From: Candidatus Latescibacterota bacterium
GTDB lineage: Bacteria > Latescibacterota > UBA2968 > UBA8231
Length of the DNA stretch: 64,000 bases
Direction: 5' to 3'
Assembly (NCBI GenBank): GCA_965223905.1
Contig: CBDCXV010000001.1
Coordinates: 800,001-864,000 of the forward strand
Position numbers and translations under genes: made by a program. Each line of letters begins with the position of its first letter. The first letter of the stretch is position 1. Below are positions 40,778 to 53,137 of this stretch, in pieces. The notes under the pieces were generated by a model. That model was not told the DNA's origin. It worked only from the letters and a program-made list of their open reading frames with translations, and searched no databases.

Positions 40778-41878
40778 TCAGGGATATGCCTCCTGAATGT
40801 ACTCGACCCCGGCGCTTACCACTCTCTCGTCGACGTCTTCGATCAGGCTCACCTCGCCGATGCGGCGGCCGAGAACGAAGCGCAGCCTGCCGTCGCGGCG
40901 CTTCTTGTCGGCATGGGTGCGCTCGACGATGCTCGCCGCCCGAACCCGGCTGATCCCGGGCGGTACTCCCAGGCGCTCGAGCAGCGCATCCTGGCGCCGC
41001 TGTTCCGCTGCCGGCCAGGTGCCGAGCAGCCTGGCGATCTGTCCGGCCGCGGCCATGCCGAGAATCACGGCCTCGCCGTGACGGTACCCCTGGTAGCCGG
41101 TCGCCGCTTCGATCGCGTGGCCGATGGTGTGGCCGTAGTTGAGAATGGCACGCAGGCCGCCCTCCTTCTCGTCGCCCGAGACCACGGAAGCCTTGATGGC
41201 GGCGTTGCGGGCGATCAGCCAGTCGAGCTCCCCTGAATCGATCTCCAGGGCGACGACCTTTTCGATGTCTCGTTCGAGATACTCGAAGAGCTCGGCGTCG
41301 CCAATGACCGCGTGCTTGACGACCTCCGACATTCCGGCGACGCGCTCGGAAACCGGCAGAGTCCGCAGCGTGGCGGGGTCGGCCAGCACCAGGCGCGGCT
41401 GGTGGAAGGCGCCGATCGTGTTCTTGCCGAGGGCGTGGTTGACCGCGGTCTTGCCCCCGATGCTGGCGTCGACCTGGGCGACGATCGTCGTCGGCACCTG
41501 CACGAAGTCGACGCCGCGCAGAAAGGTCGCCGCGACAAACCCGGCGAGGTCCCCGACGACACCGCCGCCGACAGCGGCGATCCAGCAGCCGCGGTCCATG
41601 CGCGCTTCGATCAGCCGCCCGAAGATGCGCTCGGCAGCAGCGAGGTTCTTTTCCGAGTCGCCCCCGGAGAAGAGGATTTCGGTCACTCGAAAGCCGGCGC
41701 CGCGCAGACTCTCGGAAAGAAGTGGAACGCAGCTGTCCGCAAGGGCGGTGTCGGCGATCACCACCGCCCGGTTGCCGAGGCCGAGCTCCCGGCAGCGCCG
41801 CCCGATCTCCGGGAGGATGCCGCTGCCGACCACGACCTCGTAGCCGCGATCCCCCAGCTCGACGGCTACGGACGGCAT
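40778..41878 (-). CDS. aroB: 3-dehydroquinate synthase
   Basis: GGGVVGDLAGF, PTTIVAQVDASIGGKT, EVVKH, LNYGHTIGHAIE and HGEAV motifs. Confidence 0.96.
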   Translation of the reverse strand: MPSVAVELGDRGYEVVVGSGILPEIGRRCRELGLGNRAVVIADTALADSCVPLLSESLRGAGFRVTEILFSGGDSEKNLAAAERIFGRLIEARMDRGCWIAAVGGGVVGDLAGFVAATFLRGVDFVQVPTTIVAQVDASIGGKTAVNHALGKNTIGAFHQPRLVLADPATLRTLPVSERVAGMSEVVKHAVIGDAELFEYLERDIEKVVALEIDSGELDWLIARNAAIKASVVSGDEKEGGLRAILNYGHTIGHAIEAATGYQGYRHGEAVILGMAAAGQIARLLGTWPAAEQRRQDALLERLGVPPGISRVRAASIVERTHADKKRRDGRLRFVLGRRIGEVSLIEDVDERVVSAGVEYIQEAYP

Positions 41879-42405
41879 GGCGGCATCCGCTCGAGAAATC
41901 GGTGAATTTCCTCCGCGGCCTCTTCGGGGGTCCGTTCCCGGCACGACTGCACCGTCATGTCGGCGGCGGCGTAGAACGGGGCCCGCTCGATCAGCATGCG
42001 CTCGATTTTTTCCCGTTTCTGTTCCATGGTCAGCCCGGCGAGCAAGGGGCGGGTCTCCTTGCGGCCGACCCGCTCCAGTATCGTGTCCGCGTCCGCTTGA
42101 AGACAGACGAGCAGGCCCGGCGATTGGCGGACGGCGTCGCGGTTGCGCTCCTGGGTGATGGCGCCGCCGCCGAGGGCGACGACGACGTCGCGGCGCCGAG
42201 CGACCTCGACTACGCAGCCGTGCTCGAGATCCCGGAACCAGTCCTCGCCTTTGTCCGCAAAAATATCCGCGATCGCCATGCCGGCGCGCTCCTCCACCAT
42301 GTCGTCGGTATCGATGAACCTGCGTCCCATGCGCCGGGCCAGCAGGCGCCCCACCTTGCTTTTGCCGGTCGCCATGAACCCGGTGAGGAAAACCGGGCCG
42401 TTCAC
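41866..42405 (-). CDS. aroK: Shikimate kinase
   Basis: GFMATGKS P-loop, DTD, GEDWFR, LGGG and RPLL motifs; start could be up to 42456. Confidence 0.94.
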   Translation of the reverse strand: MNGPVFLTGFMATGKSKVGRLLARRMGRRFIDTDDMVEERAGMAIADIFADKGEDWFRDLEHGCVVEVARRRDVVVALGGGAITQERNRDAVRQSPGLLVCLQADADTILERVGRKETRPLLAGLTMEQKREKIERMLIERAPFYAAADMTVQSCRERTPEEAAEEIHRFLERMPPCRP

Positions 42406-42559
42406 GGGTCGCACCGGCCCCCGGCCGGCAGAAGCCGGGCCCGGGCACACTCCCACCGGCGTGTACTGGGAAGGACACTGCTGTGTGAGCCGAAGCCGGG
42501 CTCGAACGGCTTCGGCCGCGGCCTGCAGGCACCGATGGTCAGCTGCGCGAAGCCCATAA

Positions 42560-44263
42560 TCACATCTCCTCCGGGGCTTTCATCCCAACCAGCTCCAGCC
42601 CCGTGCGCAGCACCGCGCGCACCGCGTCGACCAGCCTGACCCGGGCCTCGGCGAGCTCGGGGTCGCCGGGTACCAGCACCTGCAGTTCGTTGTACATCTT
42701 GTTGGCGACCGCGGCCAGGTCGAGCAGATAGGCGGTGATACAGGAGGGTTCGTTCTCGTCCGCGGCCTGTGCTACCTGTACGGGAAACTCTGCGAGCTTC
42801 CGGGCGACCCGCATCTCGGCGGGTTCCCCCAGCCTGGCCGCGTCGCCGTGGTCCGGCGGTCTTCCGAATCGACTCAGGATGCTGCAGAAGCGCGCATGAG
42901 TGTACTGCAGGTAGGGCCCGGTCTCGCCGTCGAAGTTGAGCACCTCGGCCAGGGAAAAGCTCACGTCGCGGGTGCGACGGTTGCTGACGTCGGCGAACAC
43001 CACAGCCCCTATGCCAACCTGCCGCGCCACTTCCTCCCTGCCGGCGAGCTGTGGGTTCTTCTCAGAGATGATCCGCTGCGCCAGCTCGACGGCGCGCTCG
43101 AGCACGTCTTCGAGCAACAGCGCGTTCCCCTTGCGGCTTCCCATCGCTTCCCCCTTGAACGAGAGCAACCCGAAGGGGGCGTGCACGCAGCGGTTGATCC
43201 AGTCGGCGCCCGCCCGTTCCAGGGAGCCGAAAACCTGGCGGAAGTGCAGCTGCTGCCGGATGTCGGTGACGTAGACCATCTTGTCGAACCGGTAGCGCTC
43301 CCAGCGGTAGCGCAGCGCGGCGAGGTCGCGGCTGTGGTAGGTGCTCGTACCGGCGCTGGTTCGCAGCATGCAGGGGGGGATGTCCTCCCCGAGGCGGACG
43401 ATCAGCGCCCCCTCGCTCTCTTCGGCGAGCCCCTTTTCCGCGAAGAAGGCGATCGTCTCGTCGAGCCGGTCGGCGAAGTGGCTCTCGCCGAGGTAGTCGT
43501 CGAACTCCACCTGGAGAATGCGGTACATGCGCTCCGCTTCACGGCGTCCTTCCTCTACGAAGTACCGCCACAGGGAGACCATCTCCTCGTCGCCTGCTGC
43601 TAGGCGGACGAGACGTGCCCGAGCTTCCTGGGCGAGCTCGGGATGGCTTTTCTGCTCGTCGTTGAAGCGCACGTACAGGTTGGACAGCTCCGCCACCGGA
43701 TTGGTTCTGACCTTGTCGGGATCTGCCCACAAGGTGTAGGCGGCGAGGAGTTGCCCGAAGTTGGCGCCGTAGTCGCCGTAGTAGTTGATGCCAACGCATT
43801 TCCAGCCGAGGAAGGCGTGGATGCGGCGGATGGCGTTGCCGATGGCGGTGGAGCGCAGGTGCTGGATGCCGAACGGCTTGGCGAGATTCGGAGCGCCGAA
43901 GTCGATGGCGAGGGTCTTGCCACGCCCCTGATTCCCGGACCCGTACTGGCTGTCCTTGGCGGCGATTTCCTCGAGGGTGTGGCGAATGAAGGCAGTGCGG
44001 TTCAGCCTGAAGTTGACGTACCCTCCCGCGGCCTCGACGGCGTCGATCCGGTCGCTTGCGGCGCCGCTGAGCCGGGAGGCCACCTCGCCGGCGATCTGGG
44101 CAGGGTTCCGGCGCAGCTGCTTGGCCAGCGTGAAGCAGGGGAGCGCGTAGTCCCCCAATTCCTCCGCCGGCGGTACGGAAAGCAGTTCCCGCAAGGTCTC
44201 GGAATCGAGCCCGGTCGCCGACGCGGCACCTTCGAGTATTTCCTCTACGAACGGATTGGTCAC
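42560..44263 (-). CDS. argS: Arginine--tRNA ligase
   Basis: PNLAKPFGIQHLRSTAIG (HIGH variant), MGSRKG and GETGPYLQYTHAR. Confidence 0.95.
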   Translation of the reverse strand: MTNPFVEEILEGAASATGLDSETLRELLSVPPAEELGDYALPCFTLAKQLRRNPAQIAGEVASRLSGAASDRIDAVEAAGGYVNFRLNRTAFIRHTLEEIAAKDSQYGSGNQGRGKTLAIDFGAPNLAKPFGIQHLRSTAIGNAIRRIHAFLGWKCVGINYYGDYGANFGQLLAAYTLWADPDKVRTNPVAELSNLYVRFNDEQKSHPELAQEARARLVRLAAGDEEMVSLWRYFVEEGRREAERMYRILQVEFDDYLGESHFADRLDETIAFFAEKGLAEESEGALIVRLGEDIPPCMLRTSAGTSTYHSRDLAALRYRWERYRFDKMVYVTDIRQQLHFRQVFGSLERAGADWINRCVHAPFGLLSFKGEAMGSRKGNALLLEDVLERAVELAQRIISEKNPQLAGREEVARQVGIGAVVFADVSNRRTRDVSFSLAEVLNFDGETGPYLQYTHARFCSILSRFGRPPDHGDAARLGEPAEMRVARKLAEFPVQVAQAADENEPSCITAYLLDLAAVANKMYNELQVLVPGDPELAEARVRLVDAVRAVLRTGLELVGMKAPEEM

Positions 44264-45111
44264 GGTTCCACCTGGCCGACCAGGGCCTGTTTCATTACCT
44301 CCACGGGCGCGGCCACACCGGTCCAGATCTCGAAGGCGCGCGCCCCCTGGTGAACGAGCATCCCGAGCCCGTCGATGGTGCGCGCTCCGGCCTTCTCGGC
44401 CTGCGCCAGCAGGCGCGTGCGCCGCGGTTTGTAGACGATGTCGAGAACGGTGAGGTGGTCGTGCAATACCGACGGATCCGGCAGCGGGGAAGCGTCCGGC
44501 CGCGGATGCATTCCGACCGAAGTCGCGTTGATCAGCAGGCCCGCTGCGCCAATGGCGTCCCCCCCGCCAAGAGTTCCGACGTGCACGCGGCGGGACTCCG
44601 GGTCGAGATCGGCAGCCAGGGCTTCGGCTTTTTCCACGGTGCGGTTGAGGAGCGCCACCTCTTCCACTTCTTCCGCCTGCAGCAAGGCGTAGAGAATGGC
44701 CCGGGCGGCGCCCCCTGCGCCGAGCAGCGCCACCGCCCCCGGCAGGGAATCGAGTCCGCCGTCGGCGCGAAGGCTGGCGATGACGCCTTCCGCATCGGTG
44801 TTGTACCCGGTCAGGCGCCCATCCTGGTTGGCGATCGTGTTCACCGCCCCGATGACCCGGGCTTCTTCCGAGATCTCGTCCAGTCCCTCCATCACCGCCA
44901 CTTTGTGCGGCACCGTTACGTTCAGGCCGCGGATGCCGAGGGTCCGCATCGCCACCGGGACTTCGGCGACGCGGTCCGGGGGTACGGCGAACGGCAGGTA
45001 GGCGAAATCGAGTTCCGTCCTGGCGAGCGCGGCGTTGTGCATCGCCGGAGAGGAGCTGTGCTCGACGGGGTACCCGATCACCCCGAGCAGGCCGGTTCTC
45101 GAGGTGATCAA
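44260..45111 (-). CDS. aroE: Shikimate dehydrogenase
   Basis: HSSSPAMHN, NVTVPHK, GAVNT, GYNTD, GAGGAARA and GLGMLVHQG; TTG start at 45111 overlaps the upstream small ORF stop. Confidence 0.94.
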   Translation of the reverse strand: MITSRTGLLGVIGYPVEHSSSPAMHNAALARTELDFAYLPFAVPPDRVAEVPVAMRTLGIRGLNVTVPHKVAVMEGLDEISEEARVIGAVNTIANQDGRLTGYNTDAEGVIASLRADGGLDSLPGAVALLGAGGAARAILYALLQAEEVEEVALLNRTVEKAEALAADLDPESRRVHVGTLGGGDAIGAAGLLINATSVGMHPRPDASPLPDPSVLHDHLTVLDIVYKPRRTRLLAQAEKAGARTIDGLGMLVHQGARAFEIWTGVAAPVEVMKQALVGQVEP

Positions 45112-45248
45112 CCGAGGAGATCCTCGATGAACTGGTCGGCTATCTCCAGACTCTCGCTCCAACTCGCACCGTAGAGCAGCTTGATCAACAACACGCCGCC
45201 GCCGAACAGCAGGGCGAGCAGCGCGAACAAGCGAATGAACCCACTCAT
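45108..45248 (-). CDS. Unannotated 46-aa single-pass membrane protein
   Basis: MSGFIRLFALLALLFGGGVLLIKLLYGASWSESLEIADQFIEDLLG; begins 1 nt after the aroA-like stop and its stop overlaps the aroE start. Confidence 0.65.
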   Translation of the reverse strand: MSGFIRLFALLALLFGGGVLLIKLLYGASWSESLEIADQFIEDLLG

Positions 45249-45249
45249 G

Positions 45250-46533
45250 TCATCTCTCTTTCTTCTTGTCTTGCAAAGCCTGCAACAGATCGCAGAAGCC
45301 GGGAAAAACCTCTTGCAGACAGCCGCTGTCTGCGAGAACCGTCTCCCCGTCGGCGAGCAGTCCCGCCACCGCGAACGCCATCGCGAGTCCGGAATCGTTT
45401 CTGCAGTCGATCTCGCTCCCGGTCAGGGGCCTGCCCCCTTCTATGACGATCCCCTCGGGATACTCGCCGACTTTCGCCCCGATCCTGCGCAGAGCGGAAA
45501 CCAGGTGAGCGACCAGGTCGTAGCTCCCCTGCCGCAGGGGGGCGATGTCGCGGATGATGAATTCACCCTCCACCTGGGTCGCCAGTACCGCCAGCATCGC
45601 CATCTGATCGAGGAGGCGTTCGGTCCGCCCCCCGGCGACGCGCGTTCCCTTGAGCCTTGCGGCTTCGACAACCAGGTCCGCGGCCTCGTCCTCCCGCTCT
45701 TCGACCGCGGCCTCGCCTCCGATCTGCCTGAGGAGTTCGAGGAACGGGCGCTGTGGCGAGCGCAGCTCGACGTTGCGGATGCGGACCTTCGAGCTCATCA
45801 GGCTCGAAGCGGCCACCACAAGCGGCAGTGCCAACCGCAGCTCACCCGGCACGGAGACCCGAACTGCCCGCAGGTGCGTTCCCCCCTCCACGGTCATCGC
45901 GCGCGCGCCCTCCCGCCGGTTCCGTGAAATTCCGGCGCCGCGGCGCTCCAACAGCTCGGCGACGCGATCCCTGGATGAAAGTGGTTCCCTGACCTCTGTG
46001 GCCCCCTTGCCGTACAGGCCGGCGATCAGGAGCGCCAGCTTTTCCGGTGCCTCGAGGTCGGTCTCGGGATGTGAGGCCCCCTTCATGCCGTCGCCGCGGT
46101 CGAAGATGACTTCATTGCCGGCTTCGAGACGGCCTGCCGCTCCCATCCTGGCGAGGAGCTCGAGGAGCCGGGTGCAGGACTCCTGCTGCGCCGCGGGAAT
46201 CCGGGCCCTAAAGGGGATGCCCTGCCCGGCGAGCACGGCCAGTGCGGGCAGAGCCGCTGCCCCGGTGTCCGTCAGATCGACGAGGCCTTCGACGCCTCCC
46301 AGGGCATGCGGGCCTGCCCCTCGAATCGCCAGGGTGGAGTTTTCCCGCTTGGTTCCGATGCCGGCCGACTGCAGCCAGGAGACCAGGCGCTCCGAGCCCG
46401 GAGGGAGGTTGTCGACTTCCGAGTCCCCCTCGGCAACTGCGGCCAGCAGCAGAGCCAGGGCGGCTCCGTCCCGATCGCCCGGGACGCGCGCCTCCCCCTC
46501 GAGCCTGCGCGCGGCGGCTACTCGCTGCCTCAT
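45250..46533 (-). CDS. EPSP synthase (AroA) fold protein with a degenerate active site
   Basis: Colinear with AroA (L.GE.RVPGD, LLIAGL, EP..SRD, VPG, LATQVEG, AMAFAVAGL, FPGF) and in the aroA position after tyrA, but catalytic motifs are replaced. Confidence 0.8.
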   Translation of the reverse strand: MRQRVAAARRLEGEARVPGDRDGAALALLLAAVAEGDSEVDNLPPGSERLVSWLQSAGIGTKRENSTLAIRGAGPHALGGVEGLVDLTDTGAAALPALAVLAGQGIPFRARIPAAQQESCTRLLELLARMGAAGRLEAGNEVIFDRGDGMKGASHPETDLEAPEKLALLIAGLYGKGATEVREPLSSRDRVAELLERRGAGISRNRREGARAMTVEGGTHLRAVRVSVPGELRLALPLVVAASSLMSSKVRIRNVELRSPQRPFLELLRQIGGEAAVEEREDEAADLVVEAARLKGTRVAGGRTERLLDQMAMLAVLATQVEGEFIIRDIAPLRQGSYDLVAHLVSALRRIGAKVGEYPEGIVIEGGRPLTGSEIDCRNDSGLAMAFAVAGLLADGETVLADSGCLQEVFPGFCDLLQALQDKKKER

Positions 46534-46561: not shown

Positions 46562-47692
46562 TCACGGCAATCGAGCCTGGTAGCCGAGGGAGTTGAGCAC
46601 CACCAGCGACTGCTCGGCTGCCTCGGGGCTGTCGAACCCCAGGCGGATGGTGCCGCCTTCACCCTCGCGCACCTTCATCACCTCGATGTCGTTGATGTTG
46701 AGATTCGCCGCGGCCAGACCGCCGGCGATTTCCGCAATCACTCCCGGTTTGTCCTCGGCGACGACGAGAATCTCGTGCAGGCGGTGCAGAAACCCCTTGG
46801 CGTCGCGCGGAATCGACGCCCGCATTTCATTGGCGAAATCGAAGTCCCGTTGCAGGCTCTCGTTGCCAACGCGTGCGCGGACATCGCCCAGCATTGCCGA
46901 GAAACGGTCGATCAGCTCGCGAATGCTGTCGCCGTTGGTCCTGCATATGTCCTCCCACACAGGGGCGAAGGGACTGGAGGCGATGCGCGTCAGGTCGCGG
47001 AAACCTCCCGCAGCCAGCGGCAGATACAGGCCTCCTTCTTCCTCGTTCATGCGTCCCACCATCTCGACGAGGGAGGTCGCCAGCATCTGCGGCAAGTGCG
47101 AGATCGCGGCGACGACGCGGTCGTGCATCTCGGCGGACAACTCGACGACCCTGGCGCCGATGCGTCCCAGCAGCAGCTGCAGGTCGGCATAGAGCCGTTC
47201 CGGGACGCGCTCATCCGGTACCAGGATGTAGATCGCATTCTGAAACAGGAACGGATCGGCGGCGCTGACTCCCGATCGTTCGGAGCCGGCCATCGGGTGC
47301 CCGCCTATGAAATAGGCCTTCTCTCTGCCTGCGGTGAGCGCGGTTTGCGCGATCACCCGCTTGGTGCTGCCTACATCCGTGATGAGGGCATTGTCGCGGG
47401 AGAGGCGCATCACCTCGGGGAGGAGTTCCACGATGCGCCGGATCGGGGTGCACAGCAGGATCAGATCGGCATCGGCGATCCCCCTGTCGAGCTCTTCGTA
47501 GGAATACCCTTCGTCGAGCACTCCCAGTTCCAAGGCCTTGGCGATGGTCTCGTTGCGGCTGATGCCGGCAACGCGCGTCGAGGGGGCGGCCTGCCTGACT
47601 GCGAGTCCAAGGGAGCCGCCGATCAGGCCGACGCCGACTATGGCGATACGCTCGAAGACGTCAGCTCTCCTTGCGTCCTGGCTGCGGGCCAT
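46562..47692 (-). CDS. tyrA: Prephenate/arogenate dehydrogenase with C-terminal ACT domain
   Basis: GVGLIGGS, DVGSTK, GGHPMAGSE, HD...SHLP, GFRDLTRIA and DKPGVIA (ACT). Confidence 0.93.
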   Translation of the reverse strand: MARSQDARRADVFERIAIVGVGLIGGSLGLAVRQAAPSTRVAGISRNETIAKALELGVLDEGYSYEELDRGIADADLILLCTPIRRIVELLPEVMRLSRDNALITDVGSTKRVIAQTALTAGREKAYFIGGHPMAGSERSGVSAADPFLFQNAIYILVPDERVPERLYADLQLLLGRIGARVVELSAEMHDRVVAAISHLPQMLATSLVEMVGRMNEEEGGLYLPLAAGGFRDLTRIASSPFAPVWEDICRTNGDSIRELIDRFSAMLGDVRARVGNESLQRDFDFANEMRASIPRDAKGFLHRLHEILVVAEDKPGVIAEIAGGLAAANLNINDIEVMKVREGEGGTIRLGFDSPEAAEQSLVVLNSLGYQARLP

Positions 47693-47704: not shown

Positions 47705-47968
47705 TCACTGCTCCTCGAGGCCTCGAGCTTCGGCGATAATGCGCGTGAAAACGTCGACCAATGCCCTGTCTCCCAGCGGTCCCTGGTTGTATTGCTGCAG
47801 GCGTTGCAACAGGTCGCGTTCCCGTTGCGGGTCGCGGACCTCCAGCCCTTCGGCGCGCTTGATCCTGCCGATCTCCTCGGCGTACTCGAGCCGTTTGTTG
47901 ATGAGATCGACCAGCTCTTCGTCGACCTCGTCGATGCGGGCCCGCCACTCACTGAGGTCCATTCGCAA
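47705..47968 (-). CDS. Chorismate mutase (AroQ class)
   Basis: R.RIDEVD...R...IGRIK...RDPQRE; AGGAG SD before TTG. Confidence 0.9.
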   Translation of the reverse strand: MRMDLSEWRARIDEVDEELVDLINKRLEYAEEIGRIKRAEGLEVRDPQRERDLLQRLQQYNQGPLGDRALVDVFTRIIAEARGLEEQ

Positions 47969-48014: not shown

Positions 48015-49001
48015 CTAGCGAAAACCCATGACCGCGCGCACGCGATCCATCGTCCGCTCGACGACAGGGCTCGCCTTTCCCGCCCCCTGTTCCAGAATCC
48101 CGTCCAGGTAGTGCGGATCTGCGGTTATCTCGCGGTACTTCTCCTGCAGCGGCGCCAACGACTCGATCACGAGGTCGGCGAGCTCCCCCTTGAGGTCTCC
48201 GTACCCCTTGCCTTGGAATCGGGCTTCGATCTCCTCCTCGCTGCGTCCGGACAGCGCCTGGTATATCGTCAGCAGGTTGAAAAGCCCGGGGCGCTGGGGG
48301 TTGAAAACGATATCCCGCTCCGAGTCGGTGACCGCCCGCGCCAGCTTCCTGCGTATCACCTTCGGGTCGTCGAGAAGGCCGATGGCGTGGTACTTGCCCG
48401 TCTCGGATTTCGACATCTTCCTGGTGGGGTCATCCAGACCCATGACGCGCGCCCCGACGGGCCGAATCAGCGGCTCGGGCGCGGTGAACACCTTTCCGAA
48501 GCGATTGTTGAAGCGGTTGGCGATGTCGCGCGCCAGCTCGACGTGCTGCTTCTGATCCTCGCCGACAGGGACCGCGTCCGCCTGGTAGATGAGGATGTCG
48601 GCAGCCATGAGCACGGGGTAGGCGAAGAGCCCGGTGCCGATCGCTTCGTCGCGTCCGCCTGCCTTGTCCTTGAACTGCGTCATCCGCTGCAGCCAGCCCA
48701 TCGGCGTCACGCAGGTGAGCAGCCAGGTGAGCTCGGTGTGTTCGGGGACGTGCGACTGCACGAACAGGACGCTGCGTTCCGGGTCGATGCCGGCAGCCAG
48801 GAGAACGGCGGCCATCAGCCGGGTGTTCGCCCTGAGCACTTCGGGATCGTAGTCGACGGTGATGGCGTGCTGATCGACGATGCAGAAGTAGTTCTCGTAC
48901 TTCTCCTGGTCGGCCACCCAGTGAGCGATGGCACCGATGAGGTTGCCGATGTGGGGCTCGCCGCTCGGCTGGATGCCGGAAAGGACTCTTTTTCTGGCCA
49001 C
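48015..49001 (-). CDS. trpS: Tryptophan--tRNA ligase
   Basis: SGIQPSG.PHIGN, YPVLMAADIL, VGEDQKQH and KMSKS. Confidence 0.97.
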   Translation of the reverse strand: MARKRVLSGIQPSGEPHIGNLIGAIAHWVADQEKYENYFCIVDQHAITVDYDPEVLRANTRLMAAVLLAAGIDPERSVLFVQSHVPEHTELTWLLTCVTPMGWLQRMTQFKDKAGGRDEAIGTGLFAYPVLMAADILIYQADAVPVGEDQKQHVELARDIANRFNNRFGKVFTAPEPLIRPVGARVMGLDDPTRKMSKSETGKYHAIGLLDDPKVIRRKLARAVTDSERDIVFNPQRPGLFNLLTIYQALSGRSEEEIEARFQGKGYGDLKGELADLVIESLAPLQEKYREITADPHYLDGILEQGAGKASPVVERTMDRVRAVMGFR

Positions 49002-49009
49002 CTCGATTC

Positions 49010-49804
49010 CTACCTGGCGAGCAATTCCCCGACTTTGGCGCCGATGTCCGGCTCGCGCATCAGGGCTTCGCCGACGAGCACCGCGTCGGCGCCGGCTTCT
49101 CCGACCGCCTCGACGTCGGCGCGTGTATTGATGCCGCTCTCGCTGACCGTGACCGCATTGCCTCCGATCTGCGGCAGCAGCTCGAATGTCGTTTCCAGAG
49201 TGGTGGTGAAGGTCTTGAGATCGCGGTTGTTGACGCCGATCGGATCGGCGCCGGCCGCCAGCGCGCGCTGCACCTCCTCCAGGCAGTGCACTTCAACGAG
49301 CACCGCGAGTCCGAGTTCGCGCCCGATCCCGAGGAAGTCCTCCAGCTGCCCGCCGTCCATAAGGGCGACGATCAGGAGCACGGCATCGGCGCCGATGACG
49401 CGCGCCTCGTGCAGTTGGTACTGATCGACGGTGAAATCCTTGCGCAATACCGGCAGCCCTGCCGCGGCGCGCGCCGACTGCAGATGGTCGTCGCATCCCT
49501 GAAAGTACCCCTCGTCGGTAAGCACCGACAACGCGCTTGCACCGCTCCCTGCGTAGATGGCGGCGATATCCGAGGGATTGAAATCGGCGCGAATCACACC
49601 CTTGGATGGAGAGGCTTTTTTGATTTCCGCGATTAGGGCGACACCTTCCCCGGTCAGGGCGCCGCGAAAATCGAGAGGCTGCGGGCAGTCCCGTGCATGC
49701 GCGCGCACGTCCGCAAGCGAGCGGGCCGCCATGGCGCGCGCCACGAAGTCGCGCTTGTAGGCGGCGATCTCCCGCAGGATATCGGTCTCTTTTGCGACCG
49801 TCAT
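49010..49804 (-). CDS. trpC: Indole-3-glycerol phosphate synthase
   Basis: IAEIKKASPSKG, LRKDF, GVNNRDL, SESGI and LVGEALM. Confidence 0.96.
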   Translation of the reverse strand: MTVAKETDILREIAAYKRDFVARAMAARSLADVRAHARDCPQPLDFRGALTGEGVALIAEIKKASPSKGVIRADFNPSDIAAIYAGSGASALSVLTDEGYFQGCDDHLQSARAAAGLPVLRKDFTVDQYQLHEARVIGADAVLLIVALMDGGQLEDFLGIGRELGLAVLVEVHCLEEVQRALAAGADPIGVNNRDLKTFTTTLETTFELLPQIGGNAVTVSESGINTRADVEAVGEAGADAVLVGEALMREPDIGAKVGELLAR

Positions 49805-49961
49805 GTTCCCTGGAGCAATTCCGGCAACCGCGCCCGGCGTCCACTCCCGGAGATGGACCGCGGCGATTCGGCCGGGGAAGGGCCTGGCTCCAAAGGCGCC
49901 TGAGCGAGTCGCACCCGGGCGGTGCGGCGAGCGAGCGGCCGGATATCGAGGGAATAGGACA

Positions 49962-50972
49962 TTATGAGTTGCTGACTTCGACCAGCTTTTCCAGGGCCGC
50001 GAGCCCCGCGCCCGAGGCGATGCCCTCCTCGGCAACGGCGGCCCCGGAAGGCAGATCCTCCGCGAGGTCTCCGGCGGCAACGGCGGCGGCGGCGTTCATC
50101 ACGACGATATCCTTCGCCGGCCCCGGCTTGCCTTCGAGCACCGACCGCAGGATGGCGGCGTTGTCGGCAGCCGTTCCCCCCTGGAGATCGGCGGCTGTCG
50201 CCGTCTCGAAGCCGAAACTGCCCGGGGTGACCTCGAAGGTTCTCAGGGCTCCGTTTTTCAGCTCGGTGACCTGCGAAGGCCCGGTCGACGTGATCTCGTC
50301 GAGGCCGTCGCTGCCGTGCACTACGTAGGCGCGTTCAGAGCCGAGCATCTTCAGCACCCCGGCGAGCTTCCCTGTGAGGCTGGCGTCGAAAACGCCGAGC
50401 AACTGCCGCTTCGCCCCGGCCGGATTGGTCAGGGGTCCGAGGATGTTGAAAACGGTGCGGGTGCCGATCTCCCTGCGAGGGCCGATGGCGTGCTTCATCG
50501 CCCGGTGCAACAGCGGCGCGAACAGGAAGCCGATGCCTGCTTCATCGAGGCACTCGGCGACCTTCCCCGGACCCGCCTCGACGTTGACCCCCAGTTCCTG
50601 CAGCACGTCGGCGGAGCCGCACCGGCTCGACATGGCGCGGTTGCCGTGCTTGGCGACGCAGAGCCCGGCACCGGCGGCGACGAAGGCGACAGCCGTAGAG
50701 ATGTTGAAGGTCCCCGAACCGTCCCCTCCGGTTCCGCAGGTGTCGATTTTCGTTCCCCTGCCGCCGCCGATGCGCGTCGCCTTCTCCCGCATCACCTCGG
50801 CGAAACCCGCCACCTCGGTCACGGTTTCACCCTTGCAGCGCAGGGCGATCAGGAAGGCCCCTGTCTGGGCGTCGGTCGCCTGTCCGCTCATGATCTGGTC
50901 CATCGCCCCGCGGGCGCTGTCGCGGTCGAGGTCCTCGCCGTCGAGAAGCTGTTGAATTACGGTCTGCATCAC
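49962..50972 (-). CDS. trpD: Anthranilate phosphoribosyltransferase
   Basis: DTCGTGGD, FNIST, KHGNR, GSADVL and DGLDE. Confidence 0.96.
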   Translation of the reverse strand: MMQTVIQQLLDGEDLDRDSARGAMDQIMSGQATDAQTGAFLIALRCKGETVTEVAGFAEVMREKATRIGGGRGTKIDTCGTGGDGSGTFNISTAVAFVAAGAGLCVAKHGNRAMSSRCGSADVLQELGVNVEAGPGKVAECLDEAGIGFLFAPLLHRAMKHAIGPRREIGTRTVFNILGPLTNPAGAKRQLLGVFDASLTGKLAGVLKMLGSERAYVVHGSDGLDEITSTGPSQVTELKNGALRTFEVTPGSFGFETATAADLQGGTAADNAAILRSVLEGKPGPAKDIVVMNAAAAVAAGDLAEDLPSGAAVAEEGIASGAGLAALEKLVEVSNS

Positions 50973-51000: not shown

Positions 51001-51550
51001 TCAGTTCTGGTTGAGGAAATTGGCGAGCAGCCGCTTGCCGGCCCCGGTCAGGATCGATTCGGGATGGAACTGGACTCCCTGAACCGGGAAGTCGCGGTGG
51101 CGGATGCCCATGATGACGCCGTCGCCGGTTTCGGCCACTACCTCGAGGCAGTCGGGCAGGGTTTCGCGCTCGACGACGAGCGAGTGGTAACGCGTAGCGG
51201 TGAAGGGGTTGGGCAAGTCGGCGAAGAGGCGCTGACCGTCGTGGTGGATTTCCGACGTCTTTCCGTGCATGATGCAGGGGGCGCGCAGGACGATTCCGCC
51301 GAAGGCCTGGCCGATCGCCTGGTGCCCGAGACAGACGCCGAGCAGGGGTATTGTCGGGCCGAGTCGAAGCGCCAGTTCCATCGAGATGCCGGCCTCGTTC
51401 GGCGTACAGGGGCCAGGCGAGATGACGATCTTCTCAGGCTGGAGAGCGGCCACTTCATCGACGGTGATCTTGTCGTTCCGGTGCACCTGCAACTCGGCGC
51501 CGAGCTCTCCCAGGTACTGAACGAGATTGTATGTAAAGGAATCGTAGTTA

Positions 51551-51567
<17 letters not shown>
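51001..51567 (-). CDS. trpG: Anthranilate synthase component II (glutamine amidotransferase)
   Basis: [26 protein letters not shown] and QFHPES. Confidence 0.95.

Positions 51568-53137
<1,570 letters not shown>

Follow-up and report, generated by a model that had tools for sequence, protein, structure and literature searches.

What keeps a gene for an aromatic-pathway enzyme whole, in frame and in its operon when nearly all the residues with which its product should bind substrate have been replaced? The question is raised by a stretch of DNA of 64,000 nucleotides (the window) from a Candidatus Latescibacterota bacterium (assembly GCA_965223905.1, contig CBDCXV010000001.1, positions 800,001–864,000). 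On the minus strand of the window, at 45250–46533, lies a gene, here designated aroA*, specifying a protein of 427 aa that has the fold of 5-enolpyruvylshikimate-3-phosphate synthase (EPSP synthase, or EPSPS) without the residues that bind shikimate-3-phosphate and phosphoenolpyruvate. A preliminary description of this DNA had proposed aroA* as a candidate pseudoenzyme kept by selection for a non-catalytic role, in an organism that would need another EPSP synthase. The comparisons reported here indicate that aroA* has very probably lost EPSP synthase activity and is under selection to be kept, its product being probably a helper protein without enzymatic function rather than the enzyme itself. 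The organisms compared were all uncultured, and the genomes of the relatives were metagenome-assembled.

Fold and former active site of aroA*

The aroA* reading frame, which ends at a stop codon at 45250–45252, has no internal stop across its 427 aa. Its start is an ATG at 46533, backed by the alignment of orthologues; an alternative GTG start at 46662 would make the protein longer and overlap tyrA. As had been described, the frame in the aroA position is intact, and its product matches EPSP synthases over its full length: the Pfam model EPSP_synthase (PF00275) aligned residues 7–416 with profile positions 3–416 of 417, at 150.3 bits. With the NCBIfam model TIGR01356, the aroA equivalog, the score was 157.9 bits, below the cut-off of 287.25 bits, and the top NCBIfam match was the AroA half of PRK14806 (164.8 bits). 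Models of MurA, the UDP-GlcNAc enolpyruvyl transferase that shares its superfamily and fold with aroA*, gave 50–68 bits; the match to TIGR01072 (67.8 bits) covered residues 191–408 only and fell far under the cut-off of 392.7 bits.

The closest solved structures found by HMMER were class-II EPSP synthases, those of Coxiella burnetii (3tr1/3roi; E = 1.9e-49) and Bacillus halodurans (3rmt), a MurA entry of the PDB matching weakly (E about 1e-6). An AlphaFold2 model of aroA* built on 36 clade members had a predicted local distance difference test score (pLDDT) of 92.7 and a predicted template modelling score (pTM) of 0.88. When this model was used in Foldseek, EPSPS structures only were retrieved, followed by MurA, the best template modelling (TM) score (0.81) being obtained with the open form of Coxiella AroA (3roi_B). 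Modelling and alignment, which had been suggested as a check, thus returned an EPSPS fold over the full length, with MurA only a distant match. The neighbouring clusters in the ESM Atlas all carried EPSPS names (its own Latescibacterota cluster, 0.96; Pseudomonadota, 0.93; Fibrobacterota, 0.92) and gave no lead on function.

Every replacement of a ligand-binding motif listed in the preliminary description was visible in the HMMER alignment of aroA* with Coxiella AroA: PGDKSISHR has become PGDRDGAAL, GNSGTAIR has become TDTGAAAL, and RRPM, SAQVKS, KETDR and DHR are replaced by QESC, EAPEKL, QGSYDL and DSG, respectively. For a comparison residue by residue, E. coli K-12 AroA (NC_000913.3), aroA*, 19 orthologues from its family, the canonical AroA of its own genome and eight canonical relatives were aligned. 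At the E. coli positions that the literature gives as functionally important, the changes in aroA* were K22R, S23D, R27L, N94D, T97A, R100L, R124E, S169E, S170A, Q171P, N336P, K340G, E341S, R344L, H385S, R386G and K411E; only G96, S197 and D313 were retained. From these positions a panel of 13 was used for scoring (K22, R27, N94, G96, R100, R124, Q171, D313, K340, E341, R344, H385 and R386). All 13 residues are unchanged in E. coli and in eight of the nine canonical relatives of the alignment (the ninth, P0155, has 12), whereas aroA* retains two, G96 and D313.

Class-II EPSP synthase (AroA, EC 2.5.1.19; C. burnetii 3roi/3slh/3tr1 and B. halodurans 3rmt) is the closest known system. aroA* shares its two-domain inside-out alpha/beta fold over the full length, and differs from it in the near-complete loss of the key residues, a score below the equivalog cut-off, faster evolution and in not being the only AroA of its genome.

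The loss extends through the family. K22, R124, Q171, K340, H385 and R386 are each absent from all 20 family orthologues (0/20); the R124 position holds Glu or Asp in 16 of the 20, and the K340 position Gly in 15. The region of the catalytic Asp, thought at first to remain, is indeed kept in the window's own genus; across the 20 orthologues, however, Asp fills the D313 position in 10, Glu being found there in six and V, A, A or G in the other four, and this position therefore is not a conserved remnant. Most of 21 former cleft positions vary from genus to genus; the former cleft of aroA* has thus not merely been altered but is free to vary.

A sample of the nearest representatives (150 representatives at 50% identity, out of 1.84 billion proteins) comprised 22 degenerate sequences (≤5 of the 13 sites), three intermediate ones (7/13), five fragments and 120 intact sequences (≥11/13). 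P0139, P0149 and P0156 (456–457 aa) keep 7 of the 13 sites: K340, E341 and R344, in domain 1, are mostly kept, and N-terminal and domain-2 residues are lost. The cluster of P0139 contains members named Candidatus Zixiibacteriota, and all three may represent partial degeneration of EPSPS in a neighbouring phylum.

Working EPSP synthases and the history of the operon copy

Three genes with a PF00275 match were found in the 7.9-Mb genome: a MurA (439.7 bits on TIGR01072), aroA* and a canonical AroA. The last lies on contig 10 (locus L002, 625507–626754), with a gene of the enolase superfamily and an epimerase-like gene as its neighbours; the protein has 468 aa, scores 364.5 bits on TIGR01356, above the cut-off, and carries 13/13 panel residues. 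The second EPSP synthase that the organism was expected to need is thus present, and AroC (chorismate synthase), two shikimate kinases and PheA (prephenate dehydratase) were found in the same genome, as was the remainder of the pathway, for which aroA* is redundant. Across the family, an AroA above the TIGR01356 cut-off was encoded in 54 of 61 genomes, nearly all of which also hold the degenerate copy, at 105–176 bits; five matches to degenerate copies among the family genomes, at 101–115 bits, were fragmentary or partial. The seven genomes with no AroA above the cut-off are drafts of 110–980 contigs, several of them containing canonical fragments.

The working enzyme is of two types. One is class-I-like, with the motif VPGSKSYTNR, and occurs in families f2, f3 and f4 and in some genera of f1, the family of the window; the other is divergent, with PPSSKNYTTR, and occurs in most f1 genera, including the window's genome. 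Their coexistence in one family suggests that the active enzyme was replaced a second time within it. Within the family, the PPSSKNYTTR type, found in most genera, scores 338–373 bits, and the VPGSKSYTNR type 413–435 bits, in genera g2, g14 and g17 (L132–L144).

Orthologues of aroA* were found in 23 of 24 other genomes of the family, with identities of 38–50% between genera and 84–92% within a genus. In all 20 family loci aroA* occupies one stop-free frame of essentially full length, which bears out the statement that its active site was lost without stops or frameshifts. The gene order is also constant, CM-tyrA-aroA*-aroE (CM, chorismate mutase) in 20/20 family loci, with the whole block from trp to miaB kept in most, and tyrA-aroA*-aroE in 6/6 loci at class level. 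Judged from the coordinates of the high-scoring segment pairs (HSPs), tyrA and aroA* overlap or lie up to about 65 nt apart in 17 of the 19 loci from relatives; in the window the gap is 28 nt. Some apparent exceptions were rejected. A pseudogene reading of the copy in genome G055 did not hold, the flagged TAA lying outside the coding alignment and tblastn returning one uninterrupted HSP over query residues 5–420. The '1 TGA' flags in relatives proved to be terminal rather than internal stops, stop-free frames spanning the alignment. Frames of 656–837 aa in some relatives, which might have been TyrA-aroA* fusions, proved to be the aroA* frame staying open, in high-GC DNA, through tyrA but out of phase with it; TyrA itself terminates at its own stop in all six loci inspected.

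A search with a clade profile covered 151 genomes of the phylum, after which fetched loci were inspected. Conservation of aroA* extends over at least four families of its class and to f10, which belongs to the same phylum and lies outside that class: the gene in the slot between tyrA and aroE is degenerate in f1–f4 and in f10, being retained in 61/63 (f1), 30/30 (f2), 2/2 (f3), 18/19 (f4) and 13/13 (f10) of the genomes sampled. All five genomes checked in f2, f4 and f10 combine a degenerate slot copy with a canonical AroA elsewhere (401–454 bits). In families of other classes (f5, f6, f9, f11, f12 and f13) the best match was an AroA of 438–490 aa with intact motifs (PGDKSISHR, NSGT, RRPM, SAQVKS, SRDHTER, KKETDR and DHR), placed beside tyrA and/or aroE where flanks were available (f5, f6, f9 and f12). 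This intact slot AroA was the only AroA above the cut-off in 5/5 genomes checked, at 393–417 bits. The dead gene is orthologous and syntenic to the intact AroA of the sister classes: these slot-encoded AroAs are its nearest active relatives, they too stand after tyrA and before aroE, and the framework motifs LAV.ATQ..GE..IRD, AKVGE..DG and FPGFFD are common to both. The preliminary description had allowed that close relatives might hold an intact gene here, with neutral decay in one lineage; intact slot copies were found only in other classes, and the degeneration of aroA* is not a lineage-specific decay.

A maximum-likelihood tree of 63 sequences was built by a quick search, with support from the Shimodaira–Hasegawa-like approximate likelihood ratio test (SH-aLRT) only. 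The 26 degenerate sequences formed one clade (SH-aLRT 97) that fell, along with the intact slot AroAs, within the class-II group (SH-aLRT 99), the mutual order of the two not being settled by the tree; both types of working AroA grouped with that of E. coli (SH-aLRT 95). Because the branch to the degenerate f10 sequence is very long, a single origin of the degenerate clade is likely, not proven. The simplest history would begin with a class-II aroA in the ancestral operon. A class-I-like aroA would have arrived, or would already have coexisted with it, supplying EPSP synthesis from elsewhere in the genome; the operon copy would have lost catalysis before families f1–f4 diverged, after which purifying selection would have preserved the folded protein in a non-catalytic role.

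Selection, single-domain forms and candidate roles

Within its genus, the ratio of nonsynonymous to synonymous substitution rates (dN/dS) of aroA* was 0.22–0.28, as compared with 0.09–0.27 for eight neighbouring genes. Such values are in line with the earlier proposal that the protein is kept by selection, and the degenerate clade, for which a phylogeny and dN/dS had been suggested, appears as one clade under purifying selection. Constraint is uneven along the protein. Residues 1–16 (46486–46533, minus strand, as for the parts that follow) form N-terminal strands that belong structurally to domain 1. Residues 17–228 (45850–46485) make up domain 2, the least conserved part, with a mean pairwise identity between genera of 39% and a dN/dS of 0.27–0.42. 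Residues 229–427 (45253–45849), the C-terminal part of domain 1, are a conserved core with most of the invariant residues, 52% identity and a dN/dS of 0.18–0.22. In 36 sequences of the dead clade, with identities down to 40%, 31 columns are invariant; those in domain 1 include R262, T297, R298, R303, T319, Q320, G323, R328, D329, G356, G361 and G366.

Two lineages, genus g19 (family f2) and family f3, have a mini form of 214–227 aa (about 216) between tyrA and aroE, at L045:5995–6642 (+), L046:5918–6562, L047:5961–6641, L048:5978–6634 (−) and L049:5970–6611. The alignment shows the N-terminal strand(s) joined straight to residues 229–427, domain 2 having been cleanly excised, and the mini form matches the second half of the Pfam model only. 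It was full length in 13/13 further g19 genomes (74–83% identity), with a median dN/dS of 0.139 (103 of 105 pairs). Its predicted structure is a single EPSPS domain with a TM score of about 0.8 to half of EPSPS chains; the best model reached a pLDDT of 87.8, but three of the five reached only 52–55. The other genera of f2 and f4 have the full-length degenerate form, and in genome G116 (f4, locus L155) the slot has an open frame no longer than 174 aa. Domain 2 is dispensable, since it was deleted in two lineages that still strongly conserve the remainder. No interdomain active site is possible in a single-domain protein, so in these forms selection must act on domain 1.

The features by which a pseudoenzyme would be recognized from sequence are present in aroA*: an active homologue, loss of the catalytic residues, purifying selection (dN/dS 0.14–0.28) and retention across families. 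In our judgement the best explanation, and a reasonably probable one, is that aroA* is an EPSPS-derived pseudoenzyme kept for a non-catalytic job. A comparable case is HisZ, an inactive paralogue of histidyl-tRNA synthetase that serves as a regulatory subunit of ATP phosphoribosyltransferase. The likeness is one of analogy only: in both cases a dead enzyme paralogue is retained in amino-acid biosynthesis as a non-catalytic subunit (a role that for aroA* is proposed), and fold and pathway are unrelated.

Several results weigh against this explanation. The dN/dS of aroA* is at the upper end of the operon's range, and its sequence changes more quickly than those of its neighbours: between genera the mean pairwise identity is 45%, as compared with 66% for TyrA. 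Slow decay is another possible reading of the shrinkage from about 440 aa to about 216 aa, and to ≤174 aa in G116. The conserved residues of the dead clade are mostly glycines, hydrophobics or residues common to active relatives; only R262 and the Gly at the K340 position (G336) are specific to the clade, and together the conserved residues point to no particular interface. Finally, metatranscriptome cover of aroA* consists of two short pieces at a depth of 2.5–4. These contigs, from metatranscriptome libraries (two runs of one study), match inside aroA* at 45453–45672 (three differences) and 45732–45917 (no differences), and short contigs of the same study also match inside tyrA, CM and a small open reading frame (ORF) downstream of aroA* (45046–45201), at depths of 2.5–5. 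They are a weak hint of aroA* transcription and not proof of expression, because DNA carry-over is possible and they are contigs rather than reads.

The rapid evolution of aroA*, the fastest-evolving gene of the block, would suit a functionless relic in slow decay, as would the free variation of the former active-site positions, the loss of domain 2 in g19 and f3, the short frame of G116 and the small number of clade-specific conserved polar residues. Such a relic might persist because its deletion would disturb expression of the packed tyrA, small ORF and aroE, the mini forms then being later erosion. We nevertheless consider this unlikely. Neutral evolution would give a dN/dS of about 1, far from the values found for the full-length and, still lower, the mini form; no internal stops were found in any of the 20 family loci, the TAA of G055 lying outside the aligned coding part; the 31 invariant columns persist, as does the gene itself in nearly all genomes of five families; and the domain deletion was precise, leaving the N-terminal strand and all of domain 1 in place, unlike random erosion.

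Equally, it is improbable that full-length aroA* was neofunctionalized and binds, or perhaps converts, some other small molecule, for instance as a sensor of aromatic metabolites or a new transferase. Invariant Arg, Thr and Asp residues do lie near the former Asp313 helix (T297, R298, R303, R328, D329, R334 and D339), the change of R124 to Glu or Asp in 16 of the 20 orthologues looks directional rather than random, and domain 2 is still somewhat constrained in f1. However, no newly conserved pocket can be seen, since at most of the 21 former cleft positions the residue changes from one genus to another; R328, D329, R334 and D339 are shared by descent with active relatives rather than new; and a two-domain cleft is impossible in the 216-aa forms, which are yet the most strongly conserved. 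The scarcity of clade-specific polar residues, most invariant ones being shared with active relatives, is easier to reconcile with a structural or binding role than with a new catalytic site. That aroA* is still an EPSP synthase, of a new glyphosate-insensitive class with an unconventional active site, is scarcely credible: it has a full-length EPSPS fold in the operon's aroA position, and some databases name clade members 3-phosphoshikimate 1-carboxyvinyltransferase, but the replacements of its key residues are not conserved among orthologues, its TIGR01356 score is little more than half the cut-off, a canonical AroA exists in the same genome and in 54/61 of the family, and single-domain orthologues cannot form the interdomain site.

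If aroA* is a pseudoenzyme kept for a non-catalytic job, the selected function would reside in domain 1 (the N-terminal strand plus residues 229–427), which would bind another macromolecule, most likely through a protein–protein contact. That contact might stabilize, scaffold or regulate an aromatic-pathway enzyme encoded in the same operon. TyrA would be the first candidate partner, since aroA* always follows tyrA closely, the arrangement of tyrA and slot survives even where the gene is halved, and class-II AroA is fused to TyrA elsewhere. Such fusions are the bifunctional prephenate dehydrogenase/EPSP synthases of PRK14806 and P0099, a 726-aa protein with PDH_N, PDH_C and EPSP_synthase domains. 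The order, TyrA and then AroA, is that of the operon; unlike the fusions, the operon has separate genes, a catalytically dead AroA part and a TyrA with an ACT domain. Alternative partners would be AroE, AroK-AroB (in an AROM-like assembly) and the canonical AroA. An uncontrolled prediction of the TyrA-aroA* complex gave a score of 0.00 in each of two runs (mark, 0.32), which counts neither for nor against binding. A specific mechanism of this kind, with aroA* as partner or regulator, is put forward only tentatively; more doubtful again is its fuller version, in which domain 1 would be a dedicated non-catalytic subunit docking TyrA, or AroE/AroK-AroB in an AROM-like manner, and controlling stability, channelling or feedback.

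Full-text literature searches returned no description of a catalytically inactive EPSPS paralogue. A preprint on EPSPS classification (10.1101/2020.05.27.118265) mentions many 'unclassified' EPSPS sequences; its passages on these describe no dead EPSPS, and its supplementary tables might list such sequences.

Dead paralogues of metabolic enzymes are already known as a kind, of which aroA* is a conserved EPSPS-derived instance; if it is indeed a non-catalytic subunit, it would be the first EPSPS-derived pseudoenzyme described, with the 216-aa form pinpointing the functional module. It also offers a clear-cut case in nature of an enzyme that was displaced while the superseded copy was retained over the long term, and the active orthologue in sister classes, together with the natural single-domain form, makes the role of a dead EPSPS directly testable. 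Finding a partner would add a regulatory or scaffolding layer to the shikimate/tyrosine pathway, which has been studied for decades with no such subunit reported. There is also a practical side. For members of the dead clade, one source gives the name '3-phosphoshikimate 1-carboxyvinyltransferase' and another 'hypothetical protein'; metabolic reconstructions and EPSPS-based classifications of glyphosate sensitivity could therefore pick the wrong gene.

The operon and its other genes

aroA* sits in a supraoperon, trpEGDC-trpS-CM-tyrA-aroA*-aroE-argS-aroK/aroB, all of it on the minus strand. The upstream part consists of trpE (51551–53137), trpG (51001–52011), trpD (49962–50972), trpC (49010–50080) and trpS (48015–49001). 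A family scan identified the next gene, at 47705–47968, as an AroQ-type chorismate mutase of 87 aa; it is followed by tyrA (46562–47692), specifying a prephenate dehydrogenase with a C-terminal ACT domain, the stop codon of which is 28 nt upstream of the aroA* start. Downstream of aroA* lie a conserved small ORF of 46 aa (45108–45248), whose ATG is 1 nt after the aroA* stop, and aroE (44260–45162), for shikimate dehydrogenase, the start of which is uncertain because the TTG listed for it overlaps the small ORF. A putative argS (42560–44263) was named from sequence motifs and synteny. The last frame of the group (40778–42532, 584 aa) contains a shikimate kinase match at 41893–42375 and a 3-dehydroquinate synthase match in its C-terminal 300 aa, and is a possible AroK-AroB fusion. 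The matches of relatives to this frame begin at residues ranging from 16 to 221, so its N-terminal part varies.

The product of the small ORF consists of a single hydrophobic helix followed by an acidic tail and carries the motif SW.ES..IA..F..DLL; it had no Pfam match at E ≤ 1. A motif scan located it directly after aroA or aroA* in the window and, of 41 other loci scanned, in 19 (f1, f2, f3 and f4). It is present in f6 too, where AroA is intact, and so is independent of the dead state.

Two further observations concern the surroundings of the block. In several relatives a second, more distant pair of TrpE-like and TrpG-like proteins (38–47% identity to those of the window) is encoded just upstream of trpG-trpD, at the upstream ends of loci L026, L028, L031, L035, L036, L040, L041 and L043. 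In the window itself, the segment 10001–12000 has a GC content of 0.54, as compared with 0.60–0.70 elsewhere.

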